In this document: in pieces, positions 1-17,794 of the stretch
Numbering within the stretch: position 1 is the stretch's first letter
Layout: the number at the start of each line of letters is the position of its first letter
Source: a virus
Lineage: Duplodnaviria; Heunggongvirae; Uroviricota; Caudoviricetes
IMG/VR virus record: IMGVR_UViG_2671180275_000001
Direction: 5' to 3' (one strand)
Length of the DNA: 17,794 nucleotides
The notes under the pieces: model-generated
Told to the model about the DNA's origin: nothing
What the model saw: only the letters and a program-made list of their open reading frames with translations
Databases searched by the model: none
Made by a program: the position numbers and the translations under genes

Positions 1-11
1 CGTGGCCAATA

Positions 12-248
12 TTACTTGACCACTACAGTCCACTGAAATGCACGGACGCCACCGTGCCGTTCCAGAAAGGCTTTTAAAGATGGGTGTTCACATTTACGAA
101 CACGTATCGTCACGCTGTAAGTCGACAACTGGTTATTCAGTCCCGCCGCACGACGCTGTTCATAACCATCGCCCAGCTTCACTGTCACCACTTTCGGCTC
201 TGATACCACATTCATATCCGGGCGCACTTTCCAGTGAAACGTCTCCAT
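12..248 (-). CDS. M: minor tail protein, lambda gpM-like (78 aa; shorter than lambda M)
   Basis: Translation METFHWKVRPDMNVVSEPKVVTVKLGDGYEQRRAAGLNNQLSTYSVTIRVRK...FLERHGG is collinear with lambda M (MKTFRWKVKPGMDVASVP...GDGYSQRAPAGLNANLKTYSVTL...FLEEHGG). ATG at 248-246 overlaps the TAA stop of the upstream tape measure gene. Stop at 12-14. Confidence 0.8.
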   Translation of the reverse strand: METFHWKVRPDMNVVSEPKVVTVKLGDGYEQRRAAGLNNQLSTYSVTIRVRKCEHPSLKAFLERHGGVRAFQWTVVVK

Positions 249-3200
249 TACCGATATGCTCCACTTAACCGACCACCATCACGGGCCTGCTGTTGCATAA
301 AGTCCGCTGCCGCTTTTTTCCCGAGGTCATAAACCGCCTTCAGGGCAGCCGGACCTATCTGCCCGTTCGTGCCATCGTTATTGATCTCGATGTTGTACTG
401 CGGGGAAAACATCGCCATACCTGAACCCCCAATATCCGCCACAACCCCCAGCTTACCGTCAGCACCACGACGCAATGGCAGAATGGCTTCAGGTCCCGCT
501 TCCCCCATCACACCCGCGCCTTTTGCAAAAGCAAAAAACGTCGGACGGTTAACCACCGTGCCACTGTAACGACTCAAATCAGCAGACTGATAAATCCCCC
601 CATTGGCATTCAGGGAAAGGCTGCTGAGATCAAATCCCAGTACACTGCCAATCCCTTTTATCGATTTCATCATGGTTGCCTGCGCCAGGATTTTCGCCAT
701 ATCTGACAGCACAGAAGAGGTGAAGGATTTGAAATTGAGTTTGCCGGTAGTGACAAAAGTTGCCAGGCCATTTCCCATGTTGCTGAAGGCTGACGAGAAC
801 ACCTGTTCTGCTGTTTCTGCCGTATTATCTGCATCCACGGTAAAATCCTGAAATGCACGCAGGACTCCGTTTTTCCAGTTACCCTGCACAACTTCAAGCT
901 GTTGCCAGTAACGGCGATTCTCATTCAGTTGTCGGTTCAGGCTCTCCGTCAGCGCCTGCTCGGCCTTTCTGTAGTCATCCGTGTTATATGTCCCTTTCTG
1001 CTCACTATCCCGCCTCAACTGCTCCAGCTGTTGCTGGTATTTCTGGCGAAGACTCAGTTGTACCTGATATCGCTGTCGCTGCTGATCACCCATACCCACC
1101 GTGGCGATATCCAGGTCATGTTGCTGACGCTGAGCGCGCTCTTCTTCAGCCAGTTGACTGGTCAGCTGAATTGTTTTTTTCTTCAGCTCGTTGAGTGCCG
1201 TCTGTTTCTGAAGCTCCTGCTGTTTTACATCCAGCAGCGTCAGTGCCTGAATCAGTTCATCTTTACGGGCCAGCACACTCTTTTCATCTGCCGTAAGTTT
1301 TTTCCCGTCCAGGTCGCTGATGCGCTGCTGCAGAGCCAGAAGCTGTTTATGCGCTTCTGTCATCCTTTCCGTGGCAATGCCTGCTGACTGTCTGGCAGCA
1401 GCAATCTGTCCTTCCACCTGTGCCTGTTGCTGACTGTACTGCAGCAATAACCGGGTGGCCTCATCATTAAGGGTTTCGCGTGTTTTTTTCTTACCGGATG
1501 CCAGGGCTTTCTCGTAACGTTCATTTTCACGTTGTATCGCCGCATCCCTGACAGCCTGATCGGCGTACTGCATGGCATTAATACGCGCAATTTCACGCTG
1601 ATGTCGTGCTGCTTCCGTTTCATTCATCCGGTTCAGTGCAGCATTTTCAGCATTACGGCGTTTCTGTTGCTCCTGATAATTCCGCTCTGCCTGCTCTTTT
1701 GCATCCTGCAAATCCTTCTGGCGTTTTTTCTCCTGAAGATCGTTAAGACGCTGCTGATCGTATTCAACCTGAGAAGATGATGCCGTCCAGGGGAGTCTTT
1801 TCGCCCGCGACACTTTCTCCTGTAAAGCGGCAATCTGTTCATCCAGCGAGTCTTCACGACCAATATTCATGGCCGCATCCCAGAAACGACTCCACAAATC
1901 AGACAGATACTTCAGCGTACTGCCAAGCGCATTGAGGTTATTATCAATATCCGCAGTACGCCGACCGGTTTCCTCTGCCAGTGCAGACATGGCTATCCGT
2001 GCAGCATCACTGGACCGCCCCTGCTCCCCAAGGACGCGTATCTGCTCAAGCTGAGTGGCAGTAAGAAAATGCAGCTCATTGTCCAGAGCCTTCGCGGCAT
2101 TTACAGGATCATCCTTCAGCCGCTTAAACTGATTTATGGTATCGCTGACCGACTGGCCAACCGATCGCTCCATCTGTGCGGCAGCTCTCGCCACCATACC
2201 GATATCGTTTCCACGAAATGCACCACTCCCCACCACCTGAGCCAGCGCACCGGCTGCAGCATGTTGCGTGATACCATTCCCGGAAATAGCACGACTGAGC
2301 GTCCACAGCTGCCCGGCAGTGACTCCGGCATAATGCCCCGTCAGCGACAACTGGCGGTTAAATTCTTCCCCCTCCTTCTGACCGTCATACCAGGCTTTAC
2401 CCAGACCATAGACGGCCGCGGCAATACCGCCAATAACCCCGCCAAGCATCATGCCTTTCGGTGACATCAGTGTGTCTATCCATCCGGCACGGTTAGCCAG
2501 CGTTATCCCGGATCCCCTCAGCGCCCCTAAATTGCCGCGGGCCAGTTCACCTATCAGAACGCCTATCTCCTGGCGGGCTGATGCACTTTTCAGACCCAGC
2601 GAATGCGTGGCTTTTCCTGCCTGCTCCATTTTGCGGATATACACTTCTGCAGCACTGCTTACCCCCAGCTGGGCTGCCTTAGCACGAAGCAACTCAGAAG
2701 ATGAAAGATTCAGGCGGGTTGCCTGCTCTTTAAGCTGACGGATAAACGCCACTTTCTGTCGGGTAGCCTCTTCCTCAGCCTGTGTAAGAACACGGGTTTT
2801 CGCAGTAACCTCAGAAATCAGCGCCAGATAATCCTGCTGACCAATCCCGCCACTGTTTCTGGCCTGTCGGATCTGCTGCTGAATACGCTGTAATTCCTGC
2901 AGCCCCGCACTGGCCTGTTTCACACTGTCAATCTGACGATAAAACGCAGCAGCCGCTTTATCCTGAACCTCCGCCAGAGCCATGGCCTGCGCCTGTTCCT
3001 CGCGCATTTTCTGGCTCAGTGCCTCCATGCGCTGGCGGGTTTTCTCCACCTCGCGGGCCATGCGTTCATGAGCCTGTGCGTTCTTCTCCACCGTCTGCGC
3101 ATGGACGGATGCGGCTGTTGCAGCCGAAGAAGCTGCCTGCGTTGTCTGCCGGGCGGCCTGAGTCTGACGCTCCATAAAACGCTGCATACGGGCAGAAGAC

Positions 3201-6489: not shown

Positions 6490-8448
6490 TTACGCCGTAC
6501 ATTTCACCAGACCGCGGTGATCAACTGGCGCGACACCGGCGTCAATACGCACTTTCGTTGTCACGCCATCCACACTGAAGCCCTCCATCTGATCAATATA
6601 TGGCGTATCCACACCGTTGAGATAAGCCACTTCAATCGTATCGGAGCCTTTGGACGCAGCCAGGTAGAAGGTGGTCTGGCTGTTATCATCAAGACGAGGC
6701 TCTGCAATAACGGTCGCAAAATCTTTCACCGGGTTAATAATACCTGCGTTAATGTCAGCCCCCTTGACACTTGAGGAGCGAATGACCTGGTTAGCAACAG
6801 ACTCCATCGCCGTCGGTACCAGTACGAACGCAGGACGAATATTCAGATGACGCTCCCCCTCTTTCTGAACGCGCATCAACTGGCGGGCTTTATCCAGCGA
6901 TGCCACGTCCATTGCAGCGCTCTCCAGTACGTTTGCATGTTTCGCTTTATCGAACAGACTTACATTATCTGTGGAGATTTTCGGGTTAGACGTCAGAATG
7001 GCATAAACCAGATCGGCAATGGTGGATTTCGCCGCACGGCCCAGCTTCATCGGGACATCGGTCAGCATATTCAGATCATCATTGATAATGGCCTGACGGG
7101 TGATACTGAACAGCTCGCCATAGGTCGCCAGTGCAATAGTGGCCTGTTTATCTCCGGTGGTGACGTATTTATATTCCGCCCCTTCACGCACCTGACGCAG
7201 AGCACTGAAGCCCCCCATACCCACACGATGGGCAATTTTAAAATCAGACAACTGACCTTTCCGCGTCCACTGTTCATAGGTTTCAGGAGCATCTTCCCAG
7301 CCCTGCAGAATGGCTTTGTTCGCAACATCCAGCAGAATATTACCGAAGTCAGACGTACTGTGTGTGAACGCCGCACCGACCATCTGCATCGGGTTATAAC
7401 TGGAAACCCCAATACCCCGTTCAGTCAGTGACATACGGGCATATTCACGCAGGGTCATCCCGTTGTAGACATTATCACGTTCGGTTTTTTCAAATCCGGC
7501 ACGCGCCATCAGCGCCTGGCGGATCCCGTCCCCCACAAAATTACCGTTACCGGCATAAATATGAGCCGGGGTATTTTTATTGGATGGCGTGGACTCGCGC
7601 CCCATCTCGTTCAACAGCTTTTCGCGGGCCTGCTCCAGCGAACATTCAGGATCGGCAAGACACTGAGCCTGCAGAGTCTGATAACGCCCGCCAAACATGG
7701 CAAACAGATCATTAATACCGTTTACACGCGCTTTTTGCTCTGCCAGTACCTGCGCACGGATACTGTTTTCATCCACCACGGGTGCTGCTGCCTGCACTGG
7801 CGTCCGGGAGGCTGCAGGTTCATCATCCTGTACGCGTGGAGCACTGTTGCGTGGCGGAGTAATCATGTTTCGAATGGATTCCGGCATCTTTTTAAATTCC
7901 TCTGTACGTTTTGACTGAATACATGCCATTGCCTTAACGGCTGGCGTTACCTGATCAGCAAATCCATGTGCCAGACATTCGGCACCGGACATCCAGGTCT
8001 CATCCGCCAGCATGGCAGCAATTTCATCGGTGGTTTTCCCGGTTTTCTGTGCATAAGCGGGTAACAGAACCGCCTCAACTTTATCGAGCAGGTCGGCATA
8101 GGTGCGCATGTCCTCCGCATCACCGCCCGTAAAGCCAAATGGTTTATGAATCATCATGAAAGTGTTTTCCGGCATAATGACCGGGTTTCCCACCATCGCA
8201 ATGACCGACGCCATTGACGCCGCCACACCGTCGACATAAACGGTAATGGACGCACCATGTGTTTTCAGCGCATTAAAAATGGCGATGCCTTCAAAGACAT
8301 CGCCACCCGGTGAATTAATATGGAGATTAATGTGGGTGATATCGCCCAGTGCATTCAGATCACTGATAAACTGCTTCGCTGTAACACCCCAGAAACCAAT
8401 CTCGTCATAAATATAAATATCCGCGTCACTCTGGTGACCAGCCTGCAT
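6490..8448 (-). CDS. fused prohead protease (ClpP-like) / major capsid protein (HK97 fold), 652 aa
   Basis: N-terminus has ClpP-type motifs (IYDEIG, SPGGD, GVAASMAS, MMIHKPFG); C-terminal half has HK97-type capsid blocks (PEGAEYKY, FSITRQAIINDDL, TDTIEVAYLNG, KVRIDAGVA). Start set to the first ATG after the portal stop (MQAGHQSD...); the 739-aa track ORF would overlap the portal by about 250 nt. Confidence 0.9.
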   Translation of the reverse strand: MQAGHQSDADIYIYDEIGFWGVTAKQFISDLNALGDITHINLHINSPGGDVFEGIAIFNALKTHGASITVYVDGVAASMASVIAMVGNPVIMPENTFMMIHKPFGFTGGDAEDMRTYADLLDKVEAVLLPAYAQKTGKTTDEIAAMLADETWMSGAECLAHGFADQVTPAVKAMACIQSKRTEEFKKMPESIRNMITPPRNSAPRVQDDEPAASRTPVQAAAPVVDENSIRAQVLAEQKARVNGINDLFAMFGGRYQTLQAQCLADPECSLEQAREKLLNEMGRESTPSNKNTPAHIYAGNGNFVGDGIRQALMARAGFEKTERDNVYNGMTLREYARMSLTERGIGVSSYNPMQMVGAAFTHSTSDFGNILLDVANKAILQGWEDAPETYEQWTRKGQLSDFKIAHRVGMGGFSALRQVREGAEYKYVTTGDKQATIALATYGELFSITRQAIINDDLNMLTDVPMKLGRAAKSTIADLVYAILTSNPKISTDNVSLFDKAKHANVLESAAMDVASLDKARQLMRVQKEGERHLNIRPAFVLVPTAMESVANQVIRSSSVKGADINAGIINPVKDFATVIAEPRLDDNSQTTFYLAASKGSDTIEVAYLNGVDTPYIDQMEGFSVDGVTTKVRIDAGVAPVDHRGLVKCTA

Positions 8449-8461
8449 CCTGAACCAGGAA

Positions 8462-9970
8462 TTATTCTTCGGACTGGTCGTCGGTGTGCTGCGGCTCCTG
8501 TCGTTTCGTTGCGGCACTGCTGCCTCCTTTATCACTGGCCGGATCGGTATCAAATACCAGATCCAGCTTGCGGTTTTCATCAATTTCGGCCTTGCGCCGA
8601 CGTTTGACATCATCCGGATTACGACCACCAGCACGTACCCAGTCTGATTCTGTCGCCGCTCCACCACGAATCTGGATTTTCCAGGCCTCAGCCTCCTTAA
8701 CAGGGTCAATCCACGGCATCACTGGTCCGGAATACACCGCGGTATACAGTGAAGAACGGTCAAGATCGCGGGGTAGCCTGATAACACCGGATGCCACAGC
8801 CTGTTTCAGCCAGGCACGATACATCGGGCGGGTGACGGCACCAATAAACCAGTCCTGCAGGATCAGGTAGCCATCAGTAGACTCAACCAGTTCCTGACGC
8901 TGGGCGCTGTAAGTGCCGTTATAGTTGCGTGCCGTACTGGAAAAACTCAGACGACTGCCCGCCGCCACGGCACGCAACTGACCATTACGAAAAGTTTCAA
9001 GGTTAGGATTGGGACGATCCGACTTCACCATTCCGATTTCTTCGCCGGGTTTCAGATCGTCGTAAATAATGCCTGGCTGAATGGTAAGCTCGCGTTCATT
9101 CTCCTTGCTGTCATTACCATCCGTTTCATAGCTCTGTCCGTCGCCTTTCCGGATGTACATCCCCAGAGCAGCGGCGATCCTTGCTGCAGTCAGCTCAGAA
9201 TCTTCATACTCTTTCAGGGCGCTGAGGCGGATCAGCACACCGGACAATAAAGACGTCCCGCGCATCTGGTGCAGACGTCGAACAAATTTAAGATGCAGCA
9301 TTCGCTCTGCATCCACTTCTTTGGTTTCCATCTGCCGTCCGGATACAGGACGACTTTTATACACCAGATATTTTTCGGGACGCCCCCAGTCATCAACAAA
9401 CACGCCCTGATTCAGCCTGTTGCTCTCATCACTGGTCATGGGAATAAAGTCCGGCTCGAGCGCCTCCAGCCAGAAATGAACACCGGCAGAAGGCGTCAGG
9501 CTGTTTATGCGCCCGGAAACCATCTGGGCAAACACCTCACCATCGCGCAGCCAGGTACGCAGCATCAGACGTTCCAGCATCGGACGGGTAAACTGCCCGG
9601 TGACTTCCGGACTGACAGACCATTCACTCCATCGGGTACGTATCTCCGCTGCCAGGTCACGGGCAATGGCACCATTGCGTAATACCGGATGTGGCTCGAC
9701 AATAATCCCGTTTTTCCCCACCACCCGTTCTTCCAGCTTGTCAAATACACCAATGACCAGATCGTGGTTGTTATCAAGGTAACGGGCCTGCTCACGTAAC
9801 GACACGGCCCCGTACTGGCTTAACTGGTCGGCAGTTCGGTTCTCCCGTCGGGCTTTGTGTGTCCGCGTCGTTTTTACGGCCTCATAAGCTTGGATCACCG
9901 CTCGGGAACGCAGCCTTGCCGCTTTCCATCCTGGTGAAAAAACGCCAATCACATCATCAAGAATTGCCAT
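8462..9970 (-). CDS. B: portal protein, lambda gpB-like
   Basis: 502-aa ORF from MAILDDVIGVFSPGW with GAGG 5 nt upstream. Position between the W-like gene and the protease/capsid gene; length and overall composition resemble lambda B (533 aa). ATG overlaps the W-like stop (TGATG). Confidence 0.88.
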   Translation of the reverse strand: MAILDDVIGVFSPGWKAARLRSRAVIQAYEAVKTTRTHKARRENRTADQLSQYGAVSLREQARYLDNNHDLVIGVFDKLEERVVGKNGIIVEPHPVLRNGAIARDLAAEIRTRWSEWSVSPEVTGQFTRPMLERLMLRTWLRDGEVFAQMVSGRINSLTPSAGVHFWLEALEPDFIPMTSDESNRLNQGVFVDDWGRPEKYLVYKSRPVSGRQMETKEVDAERMLHLKFVRRLHQMRGTSLLSGVLIRLSALKEYEDSELTAARIAAALGMYIRKGDGQSYETDGNDSKENERELTIQPGIIYDDLKPGEEIGMVKSDRPNPNLETFRNGQLRAVAAGSRLSFSSTARNYNGTYSAQRQELVESTDGYLILQDWFIGAVTRPMYRAWLKQAVASGVIRLPRDLDRSSLYTAVYSGPVMPWIDPVKEAEAWKIQIRGGAATESDWVRAGGRNPDDVKRRRKAEIDENRKLDLVFDTDPASDKGGSSAATKRQEPQHTDDQSEE

Positions 9971-10182
9971 CAGAACCTCGCCAGCCGGTACCCGGGATGC
10001 CCCCGTCGTCGTGTAATCAGAGCCGCAAGGCGGCGCTCCCACTCCTGCCGCCCCTGCCGGATCTCAGATAAGTTTTCCATGGTCATCTGCTGACCATTAA
10101 AAGTGACGGATTTTCCGTCCAGCACTGCCATTTCAGCTTCCGTATAACGCTGAATCATGGCTTCAATATCATTCTGATTCAT
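9970..10182 (-). CDS. W: head-tail joining protein, lambda gpW-like
   Basis: 70-aa ORF (MNQNDIEAMIQRYTEAEMAVLDGKSVTF...RRRGHPGY). Lambda W is about 68 aa and ends ...QRRRGPAGFYV. ATGA overlap with the terminase stop, as for lambda A-W. GGAGG lies 6 nt upstream. Confidence 0.6.
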   Translation of the reverse strand: MNQNDIEAMIQRYTEAEMAVLDGKSVTFNGQQMTMENLSEIRQGRQEWERRLAALITRRRGHPGYRLARF

Positions 10183-11291
10183 AACCATCCTCCGGAAGTC
10201 AGCCAGGGGTTAACATCGTCAGTTACTGTTTTCTTCCGTTTTTGTTTTTTAACAGGCGTGGATACCGGTTCCGGTGTGGGTGACGGTTCGGTACTGTCCG
10301 GGACACACTCCAGCCAGGTTTCCCGGCTCGCCCACTCCGGTGCATCCGGCCAGCGGATCTTTTCGTATCCATGCAGAATGACCAGAGCCTCGGCATACAC
10401 CATCAGGTCAAAAGCTTCGTTGGCACCGCGACCCGGCTTACTCCATTTCCCGTCACTGCTCCGCTCTTCATACGTCAGTTCGTCGTAAAACCAGCTCCCC
10501 AGCCAGTCAGGGAAATGCACATAGCCGGGACCTGGCGAGTCACGCCATAACGCGTTATTCACCCTGTCTTTCAGGGCATCCGTCTGAAGAAGCCAGAGCG
10601 GTACATCACCTGCGGCCTGCGCCCGTCGGCCCGTTCGTCCGGTGTTATCAGGGAATGTACGGGTGATCAGTTTTGCGCGCCGGATGCTGTCGCCCTTAAA
10701 CAGGTAAATACGTTTACCAAGGCCATCACGACGGCAACGACGCCAGAATTTATAGGCATTATCAGTGACCCCGTCTTCACCGCCGGAGTCCACCGCCATT
10801 GCCATCAGTCGCATTTGTTGAGAAGGATCGGAGGCCAGCGGCCAGCTTTTATGAAAAACATCCGTCAGCAGGACATCCCAGTCTTCCGGATAGCTGGCCG
10901 GATCAATTCGCTGGCTCTCCCCGTCGCTGTCACCGCGCAATGACTGCGTGATGTTGTAACGATCAATAATCCAGCGTTCGCCACGGCTGCCATAGCCCGT
11001 TACCTGAACCACAAAACGGCGATGACGTCCCGCCTGCACATCCACTGTCGCCACAAGGAAATTAACGCCATCCGGCACACTGCGGGAAGGAACTGGCTCT
11101 GCCCGCTGCTCAAGCAATTCACTTTTTCGTTGCTCCATGCTGGCGCGGGGAAGATAAGGTAATCCCCAGTCGGTATTGATAACCGTCTTGAGTGTCTCTT
11201 CACTTCCGGTTGTCTCGTATTCCTGTTCTGCAGTAAGCAGTTTGTAAACGAGTTGCGAGAGTGTCTGATAAGCAGCTGCCGGCCCCTCCAT
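10179..11291 (-). CDS. A: terminase large subunit, gpA family, C-terminal portion only (5-prime truncated; probable pseudogene)
   Basis: 370-aa ORF matching the C-terminal part of lambda gpA (LVATVDVQ vs LTAGIDSQ; AVDSGG vs WDTGG; NEAFDLMVYAEAL vs NEALDCFVYALAA). Frame is closed by a stop 11 codons upstream of the ATG; no SD; upstream DNA is AT-rich and non-coding. No Walker-A N-terminal domain. Confidence 0.8.
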   Translation of the reverse strand: MEGPAAAYQTLSQLVYKLLTAEQEYETTGSEETLKTVINTDWGLPYLPRASMEQRKSELLEQRAEPVPSRSVPDGVNFLVATVDVQAGRHRRFVVQVTGYGSRGERWIIDRYNITQSLRGDSDGESQRIDPASYPEDWDVLLTDVFHKSWPLASDPSQQMRLMAMAVDSGGEDGVTDNAYKFWRRCRRDGLGKRIYLFKGDSIRRAKLITRTFPDNTGRTGRRAQAAGDVPLWLLQTDALKDRVNNALWRDSPGPGYVHFPDWLGSWFYDELTYEERSSDGKWSKPGRGANEAFDLMVYAEALVILHGYEKIRWPDAPEWASRETWLECVPDSTEPSPTPEPVSTPVKKQKRKKTVTDDVNPWLTSGGWL

Positions 11292-11313
11292 CCAGGAAGA
11301 AGTAAATAAAAGG

Positions 11314-11345
11314 TAACTAAATGATTATAAATAGTTATTTAGTTA
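11314..11345. repeat. AT-rich inverted repeat TAACTAAAT-N14-ATTTAGTTA next to the terminase truncation point
   Basis: Perfect 9-bp arms at about 11314-11322 and 11337-11345, within 25 bp of the ATG at 11291. Confidence 0.4.
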
Positions 11346-11659
11346 TACTACCTCCTACATAGTCCAAGATTTAGTACCTGCTTAAACGATAAAAAAAGAA
11401 ACAAAAGCAGCAATATTAATTAAAAGCTGAATGATGATGGGGGTACGCTTGTGTCTGATTCCGGTAACGCGGTGGATTAATCCCAGTATTTCGGCTTCTG
11501 TCATTGTGCCCCCATCGCGCTGGTGAAGAAAACAAGCTCAGATTTTTTGTAAAGAATCTGTCACGCTAAAAGATGTCGAACAAAAAATAACCTTCTTCAT
11601 CATCTTTTTCACATCAAAATAATTAAAAACAATCACTTACGCACATGATGATGATGACG

Positions 11660-11760
11660 ATAAAATCAAAAAAATGCGCTTTTTTCCGCGCCGCCCGCCC
11701 CGTGTTCAGGCCCACCCCACCAGGAGGACCCGCAAAAAAGGCGGCTGGTGCCGCCTTGTT
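11660..11760 (-). repeat. conserved ~100-bp element, copy A (terminator plus conserved distal block)
   Basis: Aligns at roughly 85% identity with 14198-14299 (ATAAAATCAAAAAATGCGC...TTTTTCCGCGCC...CCGCCCCGTG...CAGGCC...ACCCCACCAGGAG...AAAAAAG + hairpin). Identity is by eye. Confidence 0.6.
11733..11756 (-). terminator. intrinsic terminator after the second protease/capsid gene
   Basis: Minus strand GGCGG-CACCAG-CCGCC followed by TTTTTT, starting 6 nt after the stop at 11762. Confidence 0.6.
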
Positions 11761-11761
11761 G

Positions 11762-13651
11762 TCATAGTGAATCTGTCCCGCCTGATTTGACCATACCGCG
11801 ATAATCCAGAGCTGCCACACCTGCATCAATACGGACTTTCCAGGCCACGCCGTCAACGATAAAACCTTCCTGCTGTTCAAGGTAAGGCTCGTCATTGCCA
11901 TCAAGATAAGCCACCTCGATTGTGTCAGTTCCCTGTGCGGAAAGCATGTACCATTGTTTTTCGCTGATATCATCAAGGCGGGGATCGACGATGATATCAA
12001 GTAGCTTGTGGTACGGGTTAAAGATCCCGCTGTTTTTATCAGCCCCGAAAGGTGCGGTTGAGTTAATCATCTGCAACGCGCGATCTTCCAGTGCTGCCGG
12101 AACTAAAAGGAATTTAGGCGCAATATTCAGCACTTCGCCATTTTTGTCCTTCTGTGTGCGCATCAGGTGACGTGCTGCACTAAGTCCCGATGTTGTCAGT
12201 CCTGCTTCAATCAGGTTGCTGTGTTTTTTGTCAAACAGCGTTATTCCGTCAGAAAGTTTTACGTTGCCTGTAAGCACCAGATTAACCAGATTTCCCACCG
12301 TTCTTGATGCTGCACGGCCCATAGCCATTGGCACCGTTGATAACTGATCAAGGTCATCATTGATTATCGCCTGGCGGGTAATGCTGAAAATATTCCCGTA
12401 AGTAGCCAGCGCGATGGGTTCACCGCGATCGCTGGTGGTGATGTATTTATATTCTGCCCCTTCCGGCACTTTGCTTAACGTAGAGAAACCATTCAGGCCA
12501 ACGCGGCGGGCTTCACGAAAGTTTGAAAGGGAACCTTTTTTCGTCCACTGGCGGAATGTTTCGCCGCTGTGCTCCCAGCCTGCAAGCACTGATTTTTCAG
12601 CGCCACCAGCAAGGATATCGGTAAAATCGCTGCTGCTGTGGTTGAATGCCGCGTTTACTATCTGCGAGCGTGTGCCGTAGCTGCCCGTGCTTATACCACG
12701 ATGGGTTAATGATGCCTGTGCCATATCGAAAAGACTCATCATGGCGTAAGGATTACCGCGTTCGGCCCGTTCGTGACCAAGACGCGCATTAAGCCCCTGA
12801 CGCATGGCATCGCCAGTTATATTGCCGTTATCCGTGTACGCGTAGTAAAGATTTGCGGGGGTGGTTTTGTTTGTTGGCGTTGATTCTTTACCCATAGCGA
12901 GTAAAAGGCGTTCGCGTGCATTCTCAACGCTACATTCTGAATCCGCAAGACAACTTATAGCCAGGTCGTTATATCTTCCGTTGAAGGTGCCAAACAATTC
13001 ACGGATTCCGTTAAGTCGTTCCTGTTCGCCACTGCCAGTTTTCTGGCTGATCATGCTTTTAATTTTTTCCGGCATATTTGAAAAATCTCCGATTCGTTTT
13101 GATTCAATTCGGGCCATTGCTGTAATCGCGGGTATAACCTCATCTGCGAAGCCGTTAGCCTTACACTCATTGCCATCCATCCAGGTTTCCGCCTCCATCA
13201 TGGCGGTGATTTCCTGTTTGCTCCTGCCCGTTCTTCCGGCGTAGGTTTCTGCCATCGTGTCGCCCAGCTTGTCCATCAGGTCAGCAAAGCGGCGAACGTC
13301 GCCCGACACTCCGGCAGTAACACCACGGGGGGTATGTATCATCATCATCGCGTTTTCAGGCATAACGATGTGATCGCCACACATGGCAATAAACGAGGCC
13401 ATAGAAGCCGCCATGCCCTCAATGTGTACAATTTTCTTTGCCGGATGATTTTTCAGGGCGTTATAGATAGCCAGCCCTTCAAAGATGTCGCCACCAGGTG
13501 AATGGATGCGAAGATGGATTTCAGACGCATTACCACACGCGTTGATCTCGTCAGTAAGTGCCGATGCTTTTACACCGTACCCGCCGATCTCGTCATAAAT
13601 GCGCACATAGACAACATCTGCCATAGCCTTAATGGAAAACCATGTTTTCAT
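11762..13651 (-). CDS. second fused ClpP-like protease / HK97-fold major capsid protein (629 aa), divergent paralogue of 6490..8448
   Basis: Same domain order and motifs (RIYDEIG, HSPGGD, GMAASMAS, MMMIHTPRG, PEGAEYKY, FSITRQAIINDDL, TDTIEVAYLDG, KVRIDAGVA). AGGAGA lies 6 nt upstream of the ATG at 13651, which overlaps the stop of the upstream small ORF (ATGA). Confidence 0.85.
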   Translation of the reverse strand: MKTWFSIKAMADVVYVRIYDEIGGYGVKASALTDEINACGNASEIHLRIHSPGGDIFEGLAIYNALKNHPAKKIVHIEGMAASMASFIAMCGDHIVMPENAMMMIHTPRGVTAGVSGDVRRFADLMDKLGDTMAETYAGRTGRSKQEITAMMEAETWMDGNECKANGFADEVIPAITAMARIESKRIGDFSNMPEKIKSMISQKTGSGEQERLNGIRELFGTFNGRYNDLAISCLADSECSVENARERLLLAMGKESTPTNKTTPANLYYAYTDNGNITGDAMRQGLNARLGHERAERGNPYAMMSLFDMAQASLTHRGISTGSYGTRSQIVNAAFNHSSSDFTDILAGGAEKSVLAGWEHSGETFRQWTKKGSLSNFREARRVGLNGFSTLSKVPEGAEYKYITTSDRGEPIALATYGNIFSITRQAIINDDLDQLSTVPMAMGRAASRTVGNLVNLVLTGNVKLSDGITLFDKKHSNLIEAGLTTSGLSAARHLMRTQKDKNGEVLNIAPKFLLVPAALEDRALQMINSTAPFGADKNSGIFNPYHKLLDIIVDPRLDDISEKQWYMLSAQGTDTIEVAYLDGNDEPYLEQQEGFIVDGVAWKVRIDAGVAALDYRGMVKSGGTDSL

Positions 13652-13842
13652 AGCCAGTCTCCTAACGTTGCCCTGTACCAGTATTCAACCGCGCTTCTCG
13701 CAATCTGCCCTTTCGTGGGTACTGGCATTCCAGGGTGATTACTTTTAATGAACTGCTGATAGCGTTCTATCTTTTCCATAGTTCCGGCGTCTATGTGTAC
13801 CGTGGCACTTTTATCCGGCTTTCTGGTGTTGTTCTCTGGCAT
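13648..13842 (-). CDS. small protein (64 aa) translationally coupled to the second capsid gene; possible ribbon-helix-helix fold
   Basis: Start at internal ATG (MPENNTRKPDKSATVHIDAGTMEKIERYQQFIK...GQIARSAVEYWYRATLGDWL) with GGAGG 7 nt upstream. Strand-helix-turn-helix pattern is a guess from residue periodicity. Confidence 0.45.
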   Translation of the reverse strand: MPENNTRKPDKSATVHIDAGTMEKIERYQQFIKSNHPGMPVPTKGQIARSAVEYWYRATLGDWL

Positions 13843-14033
13843 AAATCCGCCTCCGTTTTGATTAACGGGCATCATTATTGATCGACAAAAGTAATAGATA
13901 AATCATTTTCTACCTGAAAATCAGATTATGTTTTTTCTGATTATTCTCAGAGAGGCAAAGCCATTGACGCATTTTTGCTATTGAAGCAATATTAAGACTC
14001 GTCATCATGGCGATAAAAACTCCTTTGTCGTGT

Positions 14034-14074
14034 AAAAGCGCCTCCGGTAACAGCAATCGGGGGCGCTTTTTTTT
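14034..14074 (+). terminator. plus-strand intrinsic terminator-like hairpin in an intergenic region
   Basis: Plus strand GCGCCTCCG-GTAACAGCAAT-CGGGGGCGC (9-bp stem including one G-U pair) followed by T8. In the minus orientation only TTTT follows. Confidence 0.5.
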
Positions 14075-14197
14075 GCGCCTGTTTTTTTGTAAATGTTTTC
14101 GGGAACGTTCCAGTGATGAACAAAAAACAACCTGATTCGACACTAAAAATTTTTATTCCTCAATATATCAATAGCTTATAGTGGTGGTGATGGTGCC

Positions 14198-14299
14198 ATA
14201 AAAATCAAAAAATGCGCCTTTTTCCGCGCCCCTCCGCCCCGTGGACAGGCCACCCCCACCAGGAGTACCTACAAAAAAGCCGGATTTCTCCGGCTGTTG
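14198..14299 (-). repeat. conserved ~100-bp element, copy B (terminator plus conserved distal block)
   Basis: Second copy of the element at 11660-11760; directly 3-prime of the PerC-like gene. Confidence 0.6.
14272..14296 (-). terminator. intrinsic terminator after the PerC-like gene
   Basis: Minus strand AGCCGGA-GAAA-TCCGGCT followed by TTTTTT, starting 5 nt after the stop at 14301. Confidence 0.6.
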
Positions 14300-14300
14300 A

Positions 14301-14573
14301 TTAGCTGTCTGGGTAATTACGCCATATTTCATCGCTTACACCATCTATACCCATTTCAGCATAAGTGCGATCGACTACCTTTCTCAGGTCTCCGAAGTTA
14401 TCCGGCGGCTCCGGTGGCCTCTGTGCCTTCCTGGAACATTCCAGCCGTCGCATCGTAACCTGATGCCGTTCCTTGTCTGTCTCCACCAGCTGCATGACTT
14501 CACCCCATCGCGCCGCCGCCCTCCGGTAAAATCCTTTCGCCTCGAGTTCCTCCGCTATGCGGTCATGTATCAT
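14301..14573 (-). CDS. PerC-family-like small transcriptional regulator (90 aa)
   Basis: N-terminal IAEELEAKGFYRRAAARWGEVM matches the AExLExKG-(F/W)-RRAAxRW signature I associate with PerC/Pch proteins. ATG at 14573 with GGAGAG upstream. Confidence 0.5.
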   Translation of the reverse strand: MIHDRIAEELEAKGFYRRAAARWGEVMQLVETDKERHQVTMRRLECSRKAQRPPEPPDNFGDLRKVVDRTYAEMGIDGVSDEIWRNYPDS

Positions 14574-14785: not shown

Positions 14786-14990
14786 CTCCTCACTCATGCT
14801 CACTTTTACACCTCACTTTTTAAAGCGTCTCGCTTCGTCTCACTTGATATTTTTTGATGCTTTATGTGTGTGTTTCATAAGGATTTTTTTACTCCTCACT
14901 TTTGAGCATGTATACAGGTGAGAAAGTGAGTAATCGTGTTAATATTTTGTAAAAACCTCACCATTACTCACTTTTGCTACTCACTTTTTA
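14786..14990. repeat. iteron-like direct repeats (CTCACTTTT) flanking an AT-rich spacer; candidate replication origin
   Basis: At least six direct copies of (C)TCACTTTT plus one inverted copy (GTGAGAAAGTGAG) around an AT-rich stretch at about 14846-14892, immediately 3-prime of the helicase-like gene. Confidence 0.5.
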
Positions 14991-16388
14991 CAGTGGTCCT
15001 ACATCATCACCATCAATGTAAATCACGGCGTCTTTTTCCAGTTTGGCTAACCATCGCCGCATATTTTTCACGTCATACCCAAGCCGTTTCATGTCATCAC
15101 GTAACAGCGGGATCGTGCACTTGTCGCCGTTCTGTGTGCGTGAACGGATGCACCCCCATAGTGCGGTATGGTTTTCCGTCTTGTTGCCTGCCTCCTCGAT
15201 GCGTTCCAGTTCAACGGGAGGGCGCGGCTTATCCACCACCACCAGCGACGTGATTAACTCCCCGTCAGCGTCGGTAAACAGCTCCACCACGCGTAAGTCA
15301 TATGCGGCTTCTTTGAGTTCCTCCGCGTCCTTCATTTTGGTGCATGAGATAACCAGCGCTTCGCTTCCTGCGTCCTCCCTGCGTATCCGGTATTCAGCAT
15401 CCAGCGAAGCACGAAATGCACTGGAACCGCGCGCGCCTTTCGTCTCATCCTTGCCGGAATGGTGAACCACCAGCACCGTGGCCCCTGTGCGTCGTTTCAG
15501 TTCGTCACAACCACGGATAAACGCCCCCATATCACGGGAATCATTTTCATCATTCCCACCAAAGCAACGCGCCAGCGTATCCAGAATAATCATGCGTACA
15601 GGTTTACCCGTTTCCCGCTCCACCTGACGGGCAGCGATAACCATTTCATCAACATCAAGCGGGGCAGCCGGAAAGATGGGGCGGTTTACCAGATACAGAT
15701 TTTTCACCTGCTCATCGTGCACAACCTCCCAGGCTTTTACACGACGCGGAACACCTATACCGCCTTCACCAACCACATAGAGAACCGCACCATGTGCAAC
15801 CCTGCGGCCTCCCCACTGGCGACCAGTGGCAACATGGCACGCCCACGATCCGGCAAGGAATGATTTATAGGACCCGCTAGCCCCGTATATGCTGCACAGC
15901 GATACCGCCGGAATAATCCCCTTAACCACGTAATCAAGTTGTGTGTCGTATCCGGCAGATCCCACGCTCATTGGTAGCGTGGTTTTTCGCTGGTGGTGTT
16001 TTTCTTCCCCTGGCTTTTTCCCCCGCTCCCGTTCCAGATATTCGCGCCAGTTCTCCCGCTTCTGGCTGTGCATCCCTTCGGGGTAATAATTCGCATCAGT
16101 TACACCCGCCGCCGCCAGCTTGTGCGCAATGGCATTAATATTTGATGGCCTGATGTGGCCTGCCTTGTACAGCCGGACACAATAGCGCCCCTCGTCGATG
16201 ATTCTCAGGTCTGCCAGTTCATCCAGTTGATCATCAGCCAGCACAACGGGAGGCACATTATCGCCAGCCAGTCGCCCGTCCTGTTCCTGCCACTGTTTCG
16301 CATGTGCCCAGGCATCACTACCCGCAAAAATAATGACTTCGGTCATCTTGTCGTAAGGCTGTTTTTTTAAGTTCGGTGCGCTTTTCAT
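14988..16388 (-). CDS. replication protein: RepA/DnaB-like RecA-fold P-loop helicase (AAA_25-like) with an N-terminal domain of unclear type
   Basis: Walker A YGASGSYKSF and Walker B MIILDTLARCFGGNDEND, with LVVHHSGKDETKGARGSSAF downstream, as in RepA-type hexameric helicases. ATGA overlap with the upstream 99-aa ORF. Confidence 0.75.
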   Translation of the reverse strand: MKSAPNLKKQPYDKMTEVIIFAGSDAWAHAKQWQEQDGRLAGDNVPPVVLADDQLDELADLRIIDEGRYCVRLYKAGHIRPSNINAIAHKLAAAGVTDANYYPEGMHSQKRENWREYLERERGKKPGEEKHHQRKTTLPMSVGSAGYDTQLDYVVKGIIPAVSLCSIYGASGSYKSFLAGSWACHVATGRQWGGRRVAHGAVLYVVGEGGIGVPRRVKAWEVVHDEQVKNLYLVNRPIFPAAPLDVDEMVIAARQVERETGKPVRMIILDTLARCFGGNDENDSRDMGAFIRGCDELKRRTGATVLVVHHSGKDETKGARGSSAFRASLDAEYRIRREDAGSEALVISCTKMKDAEELKEAAYDLRVVELFTDADGELITSLVVVDKPRPPVELERIEEAGNKTENHTALWGCIRSRTQNGDKCTIPLLRDDMKRLGYDVKNMRRWLAKLEKDAVIYIDGDDVGPL

Positions 16389-16684
16389 TTCTTGCCCCTG
16401 AATCCGTTAATCATGGTTTTCAGCTTCTGGATGTTTGCCCGTGCCCTGGCGTTGCTGGTGGGCACGTTATGCGGCGCGGTCTGTACCAGAGAAAAATCAC
16501 GCCGGAACTGATAAACAGGCATCACGCAATCATATTCGTAACCTTCACGGCGGTAAGTTACGCACCGTCCCGCCACGCCCTTAATCATTACCGTACCGCC
16601 GTACTGGTCGCGGTAAATATCACCGCGCGTAAATTTAGGGTGAGTGTTGCCACTGGCAGTTAAGCCAGAATATTTAAGTTTCAT
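16385..16684 (-). CDS. hypothetical protein (99 aa)
   Basis: ATG start; stop overlaps the helicase start (ATGA). No recognised motif. Confidence 0.5.
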   Translation of the reverse strand: MKLKYSGLTASGNTHPKFTRGDIYRDQYGGTVMIKGVAGRCVTYRREGYEYDCVMPVYQFRRDFSLVQTAPHNVPTSNARARANIQKLKTMINGFRGKK

Positions 16685-16924: not shown

Positions 16925-17359
16925 TTAATCCCCGTCCGTTGTTTTTCTTAAAACAGCTTCTGTCACGAAATCGGCATAGTTAGCGGCAATATCAAGAATA
17001 TTTAGCCCTGTATCTCTGTGCTCATCAGTGCAAAGAAAGAAAAAAGCCACCCGCATAATTTCAGATATTAACGAAAGCGCATCAACCGCATCATCAGGAA
17101 CGCCGGAAAATTCTTGTTTCAGGGAATTAAAACGATCATCACGCATAACCCCCCCATTTTCACAATCAGCAACAAGAATATTTTTAGCGTCATTCAGTGA
17201 CCGCGTTGCGGTGTATCGGATACATTCCAGGGCGAATAGTGTGTATTCTTCCCGTCCTTCCTTTTGTGCAAGCTCTGCTGTGCATTCAATATCAATAAGC
17301 GCGTGCATCAGCGTAGTGAGCGCGGCGGCTGCTGCGTCCGGTGTGGTTTTATTGCACAT
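16925..17359 (-). CDS. hypothetical protein (144 aa)
   Basis: Start at internal ATG (MCNKTTPDAAAAALTTLMH...) with GGAGGT 6 nt upstream. No recognised motif. Confidence 0.5.
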   Translation of the reverse strand: MCNKTTPDAAAAALTTLMHALIDIECTAELAQKEGREEYTLFALECIRYTATRSLNDAKNILVADCENGGVMRDDRFNSLKQEFSGVPDDAVDALSLISEIMRVAFFFLCTDEHRDTGLNILDIAANYADFVTEAVLRKTTDGD

Positions 17360-17540
17360 GGCACACCTCCTGACGAATACGGGCGGCGAATACAGCAACA
17401 CAACCGGACGGGCAACGGCTACGCGCTTCGCGTTCCGTCCAGGCGGTTACGTGGATGATTTGAGATTCTGACGCGCCAAAGATGATAAAGCGCCAGATAA
17501 ATGCGGTTTGAGAATGTACAAGGGTAGGGATAGTAGCCAT
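17349..17540 (-). CDS. hypothetical small protein (63 aa) with a Cys-x3-Cys ... Cys-His pattern
   Basis: Internal ATG (MATIPTLVHSQTAFIWRF...RCPSGCVAVFAARIRQEVCHVQ) with GGAGG 7 nt upstream; first gene after the terminator-like hairpin at about 17702-17725. Confidence 0.4.
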   Translation of the reverse strand: MATIPTLVHSQTAFIWRFIIFGASESQIIHVTAWTEREARSRCPSGCVAVFAARIRQEVCHVQ

Positions 17541-17701
17541 GTTGGCAGCCTCCTCAGTGTGGTTAAGATAACCGCCACGCAAAAGGCTAATTTCGCTGGT
17601 GGCGGACTGTACAGGGTTAGCCTTACCGGACACTGAAGAAACCGGCGCGGATTGCTCCGCCCCCGTACAGCCCACCATTGATAAGGTGTGACTATGCGGC
17701 A

Positions 17702-17725
17702 CAAAAAAACACGCGGGGCGCGTGC
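17702..17725 (-). terminator. intrinsic terminator-like hairpin closing a transcription unit that lies beyond the window end
   Basis: Minus strand CACGCG-CCC-CGCGTG followed by T7. Confidence 0.4.
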
Positions 17726-17794
17726 TGTGCGCTTCAGTTGTTTTCAGGAGGCTAATCCCGACACCCGTTTTATGAGGTGCGCGGGAATCATAGC

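Follow-up and report, generated by a model that had tools for sequence, protein, structure and literature searches.

A prophage large-terminase gene probably split by a P4/PICI-like satellite at a seven-base-pair core

Helper-embedded phage-inducible chromosomal islands (HE-PICIs) are satellites integrated in the late genes of lambdoid prophages and co-oriented with them, the prototype being Eco567.11capE (hereafter 11capE) of E. coli NRG857c (Tommasini, Mageeney & Williams 2023, PMC10111431). A locus of similar configuration is described here from the IMG/VR virus record IMGVR_UViG_2671180275_000001, a stretch of 17,794 nucleotides (called the window below) that is the entire contig LNFU01000070.1 of draft assembly GCA_001608315.1. 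In all probability, its open reading frame (ORF) 10179..11291 is the downstream half of a large-terminase gene (terL) split by a P4/PICI-like satellite of about 10 kb, which a tyrosine integrase inserted at the sequence (C/T)TGGATG and whose excision would rebuild terL.

The HE-PICI attP brings no replacement sequence, so that the target gene is broken until precise excision; excision, shown after induction for 11capE, restores the interrupted gene (PMC10111431). The same paper catalogues 14 late-gene sites, those in the A gene lying in Terminase_1 (positions 132 and 245/246). It finds the integrases to form a single 11capE-related clade, with P4 placed outside, notes that the helpers often appear truncated, and describes as unique to HE-PICIs a motif, doubled TGTATTGC, that flanks the attP centre on both sides, about 81 bp upstream and 132 bp downstream. 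Gram-negative PICIs are said there to have four zones: integration with AlpA, Bro and immunity RNA, replication, and late genes (PMC10111431).

The terminase fragment and its attachment site

Every long ORF of the window is encoded on the minus strand. Those that matter to the junction, with the attachment site itself, are:

6490..10188, minus strand: head genes of the helper prophage (W-like adaptor, lambda-family portal and the helper's own ClpP-capsid fusion; PF05136, PF00574 and PF25209, with gene calls), downstream of the split terL
10179..11291, minus strand: C-terminal fragment (370 amino acids, aa) of the helper prophage's GpA-type large terminase (TerL), residues 331-700, nuclease domain
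11289..11295, minus strand: 7-bp crossover core CTGGATG of attR, spanning terL codons F329 (third base), W330 and M331
11296..11422, minus strand: right arm of the satellite attachment site, 27% GC, conserved up to 11422 with two complete relatives (L001 and L002, introduced below)
11393..11384, minus strand: candidate arm-type motif TTTATCGTTT, within the right arm

A preliminary description of the window had taken ORF 10179..11291 for the C-terminal ~60% of lambda gpA. It is indeed a C-terminal part: its sole Pfam match is PF20454 (GpA_nuclease, E 3.4e-83, profile positions 6-294 of 294), and it shares 99.7% identity with residues 331-700 of the TerL of phage mEp460, a protein of 700 aa in mEp460 and in its relatives among cultured phages. 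The proportion was too generous, since the ORF amounts to 53% of its own full-length protein and aligns with lambda gpA from about residue 320 of 641 (about 50%), with 28% identity over gpA residues 345-598. The description was right that the ORF is coupled to the W-like gene (its TGA overlaps the ATG of that 70-aa gene in TTATGA), that the frame is closed upstream, with 11 open codons between the ATG at 11291 and a TAA, and that no purine-rich Shine-Dalgarno sequence precedes this ATG (...TTTACTTCTTCCTGGATG). Alignment to full-length terminases places the breakpoint at Met331 of the 700-aa mEp460 TerL; what had been called the first ATG is this internal methionine codon.

The GpA family is marked by a C-terminal GpA_nuclease domain (PF20454), which the window has, and an N-terminal GpA_ATPase domain (PF05876), which is absent from the window. 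Nor did tblastn find any match in the window to mEp460 TerS or to TerL residues 1-330 (best E 0.72), in agreement with the earlier statement that the window holds neither the terminase ATPase half nor terS. A six-frame scan of the window for the Walker-A motif [AG]xxxxGK[ST] likewise gave no matches; because it missed even the RepA helicase, it is uninformative on anything beyond the absence of the terminase ATPase.

The ATG at 11291 falls within the core CTGGATG (11295..11289). The mEp460 attB has the identical 7 bp, as do attR of the window, both attR and attL of L002, and attL of L001 (L001 being NZ_CP023815.1 and L002 NZ_CP077477.1). In a third complete genome, L044, both ends read TTGGATG, co-varying with the TTT codon of the host sequence. 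The sites compare as follows:

attB, intact mEp460: ...GCGTCATT-CTGGATG-GAGGGGCC; longer right flank GAGGGGCCGGC
attR, window: ...TTACTTCTTC-CTGGATG-GAGGGGCC; longer right flank GAGGGGCCGGC
attL, complete E. coli genomes L001 and L002: ...GCGTCATT-CTGGATG-TAGGGTACATTT; longer right flank TAGGGTACATTTCTTACC
attL junction sequence: ...TTCTGGATGTAGGGTACATTTC...; with the variable base, ...TCATT(C/T)TGGATGTAGGGTACATTTCTTACC...
attP junction sequence, for the excised element: ...ACTTCTTCCTGGATGTAGGGTAC...
restored attB sequence: ...CATTCTGGATGGAGGGG...

Such a pattern is the signature of a tyrosine-integrase insertion at a 7-bp core. Intact TerL has its ATPase domain at residues 41-304 and its nuclease domain at 326-644, which puts the insertion at the boundary of the two domains, within the conserved motif RIASFWMEGP; with respect to PF20454, the site is at about profile position 5. 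Within the arms, the motif TTTATCGCTT stands at -98 and +111 of the attP reconstructed for L002 and may be a binding site for the integrase.

Comparison with relatives, as the preliminary description had proposed, shows where the rest of terL is to be sought. In complete genomes with the same junction, the module upstream of the fragment is an integrase-bearing element of 9.7-10.4 kb. In the direction of late transcription it begins with attL, a tyrosine integrase of 399-412 aa, a small helix-turn-helix (HTH) protein, Bro-N, YlcI and an Icd-like gene; continues with small ORFs, DUF4222, a RepA helicase or primase, and SSB and/or PerC; and ends with a ClpP-capsid fusion, sometimes a DUF1441 TerS homologue, a 93-aa protein, and attR. 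Directly beyond the integrase comes a 330-aa GpA_ATPase fragment (E 8.4e-82) that ends ...SFWM-stop, is annotated "phage terminase large subunit, missing C-terminus" and is preceded by a DUF1441 terS. The satellite thus stands between the two halves of terL in three complete composites, L001, L002 and L044.

Excision at the core carried out in silico gives an uninterrupted ORF in each of them, of 700 aa (L001), 699 aa (L002) and 707 aa (L044). The rejoined L001 product is 99.4% identical to mEp460 TerL; over the three alleles, identity to mEp460 ranges from 66 to 99% in the N half and from 72 to 99% in the C half. The halves in L002 (23130..24119 and 12277..13398) yield a TerL that is mosaic exactly at the attachment site, with 72% identity to mEp460 TerL in the N half and 98% in the C half. 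The mosaic suggests that recombination at or within embedded satellites may shuffle terL halves between prophages.

How often the junction recurs was judged from both of its sides. A 140-bp probe for the attR junction is covered over at least 80% of its length in 28 complete E. coli genomes, and a span of 2.2 kb across the junction is covered in 12 closed genomes. The other approximately 1,350 genomes that match the probe do so in part; the sampled rows mostly match from the core onward, on the terL side, and have an uninterrupted terL annotation. The integrase with its left arm occurs in about 84 of 5,426 complete E. coli genomes, and the integrase abuts the N-terminal terL fragment in 6 of the 7 full-length rows among the matches listed. 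Among IMG/VR loci carrying the left-arm junction, 33 of 34 have it in ...RIASFWM, in at least five nucleotide-distinct terL alleles, and the remaining one has it between genes, beside a chromosomal LysR-family gene. These sequences show a site-specific junction, found again in several terL alleles, and precise excision would rebuild an intact terL.

The spacer of 470 bp upstream of the ORF (11292..11761) had been described as AT-rich, noncoding DNA. Its composition is as stated, 40% GC against 52% for the window and only 27% in the 129 bp that adjoin the ORF. It is, though, not featureless, holding a cos-like site, a hairpin and a remnant ORF of 40 aa:

11382..11504, minus strand: remnant (40 aa) of a satellite gene, phrog_1561, conserved and 93 aa long in its full version
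11686..11731, minus strand: cos-like site of the satellite, GGGTCCTCCTGGTGGGGTGGGCCTGAACACG|GGGCGGGCGGCGCGG, just downstream of the capsid gene's hairpin
11738..11757, minus strand: hairpin AAGGCGGC-ACCA-GCCGCCTT, then TTTTGCGG, read from the sequence, after the satellite capsid gene

The first 16 residues of the remnant match the 93-aa protein of L002. That protein has no Pfam match and no meaningful match to solved structures. The cos-like site aligns with regions upstream of terS in mEp460, in phage cdtI and in the L002 helper. Because it agrees with the ends of the cdtI record (end ...GGTGGGGTGGCCTGCCACG, start GGGCGGGAGCGTCGCGG) and with the start of the lambda record (GGGCGGCGACCT), GGGTCCTCCTGGTGGGGTGGGCCTGAACACG|GGGCGGGCGGCGCGG is very probably a cos site, and this putative site, whose ends would fall at about 11700/11701, is homologous to the cos region of the helper. 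Positions 11537..11738 are the only stretch of the satellite to match phage records, namely unannotated regions of Shiga-toxin (Stx) phages (86%). The hairpin at 11738..11757 is terminator-like and may act as one, whereas a terminator and promoter scan of 11100..11900 made no calls, at the hairpin or elsewhere.

Excision, decay and other readings of the junction

Several observations weigh against the reading of terL as split by a satellite still able to leave it. The window, a whole draft contig, shows neither the satellite's own integrase nor attL nor the terL 5' half. The window's copy of the satellite lacks 473 bp (junction about 11422..11452, seen as an alignment gap against L002 and L003), which truncates the conserved 93-aa gene, intact in six other copies (L001-L004, L044 and L045), and the candidate arm motif of the window has one substitution. 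Exact-pattern searches of viral and metagenome contig collections did not find the excised attP junction. Some relatives are decaying: in L001, IS1 disrupts int (22471..23580) and leaves a 133-aa arm-binding fragment, and L068 has a frameshifting indel of 1 nt at the junction. Apart from the contig limit, all of this, like the apparent truncation of many HE-PICI helpers (PMC10111431), would suit a fossil, an insertion made site-specifically whose copy in the window, and perhaps many others, is unable to excise. The prophage would then permanently lack terminase and be packaged only with terminase given in trans by another resident prophage, the second possibility raised in the preliminary description. 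Such a state is possible but rather unlikely: in each of the three composites tested, both halves of terL stay open and join up in frame, the core and the adjoining 127-bp arm are intact in the window, and the at least five nucleotide-distinct terL alleles hit, together with off-target sites, point to a recently active integrase.

The preliminary description had preferred a degenerate prophage in which the 5' half of terL and terS were simply deleted and the upstream module is unrelated. The lack of an ATPase domain and of terS within the window would follow from it, but dozens of genomes break at this same 7-bp core, the missing half lies on the far side of an integrase-bearing element, and rejoining restores the full ORF; a deletion is accordingly very improbable. 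The claim that the ATPase half and terS were lost is not supported, as both are found beyond the integrase in complete genomes with the same junction, nor is the claim that the head-tail module is packaging-defective, given that the halves rejoin at the core to ORFs of 699-707 aa. The breakpoint does coincide with the edge of the upstream module, as had been said, and is an insertion junction (attR with the 7-bp core) rather than a deletion. As for the N-terminal half being encoded outside the window, relatives lead one to expect it about 10 kb away, across the satellite, and not contiguously.

It is still less probable that the fragment is a natural stand-alone protein. PGAP gives it the product name 'terminase gpA endonuclease subunit', and it has an ATG start and translational coupling to the W-like gene. 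Against this, PGAP marks relatives' copies as pseudogenes ('incomplete; missing N-terminus'), a Shine-Dalgarno sequence is lacking, the start codon corresponds to the internal Met331, and the terminase gene is annotated as full length in cultured-phage records. The RefSeq names of the two halves differ, 'terminase gpA endonuclease subunit' and 'phage terminase large subunit family protein', both with a pseudogene flag; these differing names and flags hide two halves of one restorable gene. An assembly artefact, a chimeric contig joined at about position 11300, has next to no probability. The assembly is a draft, with repeated phage or satellite DNA at both contig ends (the start inside the tail tape-measure gene, the end inside the satellite immunity region), and it was probably multi-copy sequence in E. 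coli genomes that broke the assembly at both ends. Misassembly of the junction is nonetheless excluded by its presence in no fewer than 28 complete E. coli genomes.

With the halves rejoining in frame and the missing one beyond the integrase, the terminase defect is a conditional one, due to an element that splits the gene and could potentially be excised. If terL is split by a satellite as proposed, the window would present attR and the late, replication and immunity zones, and the integrase, attL, the ATPase half of terL and terS would lie beyond the contig end. By the HE-PICI model, the helper would be unable to make terminase as long as the satellite is integrated. After induction, late transcription might read through terS and the 5' half of terL into int and an alpA-like gene; this read-through could drive excision of the satellite and so restore terL, and the restored terminase would then package both the satellite, by way of its cos site, and the helper. 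The protease-capsid fusion of the satellite probably would divert assembly to satellite-sized capsids, by analogy with Ccm of SaPIbov5 (see below). In this regard, the 67-aa HTH protein of the relatives matches an excisionase PHROG (E 9e-7) and does not match Pfam Phage_AlpA. In L002 a terminator is predicted after the HTH gene, and none is predicted between attL and the int-HTH pair.

It is routine to score a prophage with a "truncated terminase" as defective, above all in Shiga-toxin-producing E. coli, and carriers of the element include such strains (O121, O111 and O157-type). Among carriers, O111:H21 strain 15A and strain 28RC1 have an intact integrase. Those in which a satellite splits terL may instead be conditionally competent, their two halves mislabelled by annotation pipelines.

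Relation to described satellites

By configuration the element is a helper-embedded PICI, because its gene order is that of 11capE: int, HTH, YlcI, Icd-like gene, DUF4222, primase/helicase, SSB and a capsid-gene homologue of its own. Like HE-PICIs, it sits within one of its helper's late genes, co-oriented with the late operon, and brings no replacement sequence, the N fragment ending in SFWM-stop and the C fragment lacking start signals. It also shares with them P4-type C4 and isrK RNAs, a cos region in common with the helper, and occasional off-target insertions. As to the four-zone PICI layout, the immunity RNA/Icd, replication and late zones are found in the window, and the integration zone and Bro-N are seen only in relatives.

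It departs from the published HE-PICIs in its target, a GpA-family terL outside the 14 catalogued sites; the string 'GpA' occurs nowhere in the text and six supplement files of PMC10111431, and a literature search for insertions in a gpA-type terL found only that general HE-PICI paper. Its integrase is 25% identical (87 bits) to 11capE Int, as compared with 34% (201 bits) to P4 Int and 39% (291 bits) to the Int of the tRNA-Pro satellites discussed below; these relations are pairwise scores and not a tree. The doubled TGTATTGC motif is absent from its attP: within 260 bp on either side of the reconstructed attP, with one mismatch allowed, one TTTATTGC, at +254, is the only match. As its late gene the element has captured a ClpP-capsid fusion, where published HE-PICIs have genes of the lambda E/D type. 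On sequence grounds, then, what appears to be new with respect to published HE-PICIs is the GpA-type terL site, an integrase outside the described clade, and the want of that clade's attP motif.

Other satellites resemble it in part. Gram-negative cos PICIs such as EcCICFT073 are discussed in PMC10111431, and Fillol-Salom et al. 2018/2019 reportedly give further details. With this type the element shares the integrase-AlpA-replication-late layout, lambdoid helpers, cos packaging by the helper's terminase and, in sister copies of the same backbone, a place at chromosomal tRNA-Pro like that of ordinary PICIs. Ordinary PICIs differ in residing in chromosomal genes and in having a purely trans interaction with the helper. 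In the terL-site satellite, no protein of the Rpp packaging-redirection type was identified. P4 is like it in having a C4 (CI) immunity RNA, an isrK/seqA-like element, a P4-type integrase, an Icd-like gene and helper cos packaging. The two differ in that the element has a RepA helicase where P4 has the alpha primase and a lambdoid helper where P4 has a P2-like one, and P4 has its integration site at a tRNA gene instead of within its helper. Sid, Psu and Delta were not found among the window ORFs scanned (Pfam, NCBIfam, PHROGs) or in the annotations of complete relatives. Capsid-forming PICIs (cf-PICIs) have a full capsid/packaging set, whereas the terL-site satellite has only the ClpP-capsid fusion, joined in some relatives by a DUF1441 TerS homologue (L001 has its own at 14048..14533); no satellite portal or connectors were found.

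Carpena et al. 2016 are said to have described Ccm of SaPIbov5 as a satellite capsid-protein homologue that makes small capsids. SaPIbov5 is thus likewise a cos-packaged satellite with a paralogue of its helper's HK97-fold capsid protein, with the difference that small capsids are known for Ccm, while the satellite here is known from its genes and its protein includes a protease domain. Regulated gene integrity, or active lysogeny, offers a broader parallel: a gene divided by an integrative element is made whole when the element excises, and so becomes a switch. Bacillus sigK with the skin element and Listeria comK with phi10403S are examples. The interrupted gene in the present case belongs to the helper phage, so the switch would serve the satellite and not the cell. 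The concept of regulated gene integrity is cited in the HE-PICI paper (PMC10111431).

Perhaps, then, this is a second, independently evolved helper-embedded lineage, with a P4-type integrase outside the HE-PICI clade, without that clade's attP motif and with an acquired specificity for the conserved FWMEGP-coding sequence where the ATPase and nuclease parts of GpA-type terL meet, which holds the terminase hostage until excision, is packaged by a helper-like cos and partly uses capsids of its own fusion. The proposal is tentative, its chances put slightly short of even. With this element the helper-embedded idea comes to include the packaging motor and an integrase from outside the single described clade, and it suggests that the targeting of phage late genes evolved more than once.

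Satellite genes, backbones and off-target sites

Beyond the spacer, the satellite genes and RNAs of the window are co-oriented with the terL, W, portal and capsid genes:

11762..13651, minus strand: ClpP-like prohead protease/major capsid protein fusion, 629 aa (PF00574 and PF25209, phrog_133)
13648..13875, minus strand: small satellite protein (phrog_4934)
14301..14573, minus strand: PerC-family transcriptional activator (PF06069, E 3.9e-44)
14988..16388, minus strand: RepA-like replicative helicase, AAA_25 (PF13481, E 9.2e-44)
16385..16684, minus strand: DUF4222 protein (PF13973)
17349..17794, minus strand: Icd-like/Ash-family gene, reaching the contig end (NF033153, E 8.4e-16; PF10554)
17595..17682, minus strand: C4 antisense RNA (Rfam RF01695, 75.4 bits, gathering score 45)
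17704..17780, minus strand: isrK-like RNA (Rfam RF01394, 61.8 bits, gathering score 50)

The satellite's ClpP-capsid fusion is 51% identical to that of the helper, and the HE-PICI identity block C:CLP_protease:110 (ATGATGATCCAT) is absent from both ClpP-capsid genes of the window. The RepA-like gene is annotated in relatives as 'helicase RepA family protein'. The DUF4222 gene is its conserved partner in the satellite backbone, upstream of the primase/helicase gene, in the same order as in 11capE. The C4 and isrK-like RNAs overlap or precede the Icd-like/Ash ORF and constitute an RNA immunity system in the style of P4.

The position of the PerC gene is occupied in relatives by SSB, PerC or both. 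The PerC family is linked to virulence-gene activation in pathogenic E. coli. Because the satellite carries a regulator of this family, its mobility could bear on virulence regulation.

The backbone is much more widespread than the junction, with matches in 1,812 of 5,426 complete genomes and in up to 8 places per genome. L003 and L004 carry near-identical backbones (93-97% nucleotide identity over 5-6 kb) at tRNA-Pro between yejM and yejO, with a different integrase, 39% identical to that of the terL site, and it appears that the integration module has been swapped between otherwise similar satellites. A scan of one genome per species found relatives of the terL-site integrase at no more than 46% identity, mostly in marine Gammaproteobacteria.

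Two copies of the integrase module lie at other sites. L054 (IMGVR_UViG_2737471855_000016, 1..1330) has the same module downstream of a chromosomal LysR-family gene, in AT-rich intergenic DNA, with the core TTGGATG, and is a chromosomal off-target insertion. In L045 (NZ_AP042483.1, strain OkiPb01677, 11444..23465) the same integrase and satellite are found in a Mu-like (Sp18-like) prophage, inserted at (C/T)TGGATG near the 3' end of the large-terminase gene, whose rejoined halves give a TerL of 554 aa (phrog_2, E 9e-43). An insertion of this type was seen in 1 of the 5,426 genomes, the site being empty in all other sampled rows that match the gene, and it looks like a rare off-target event, though once again in a terL.

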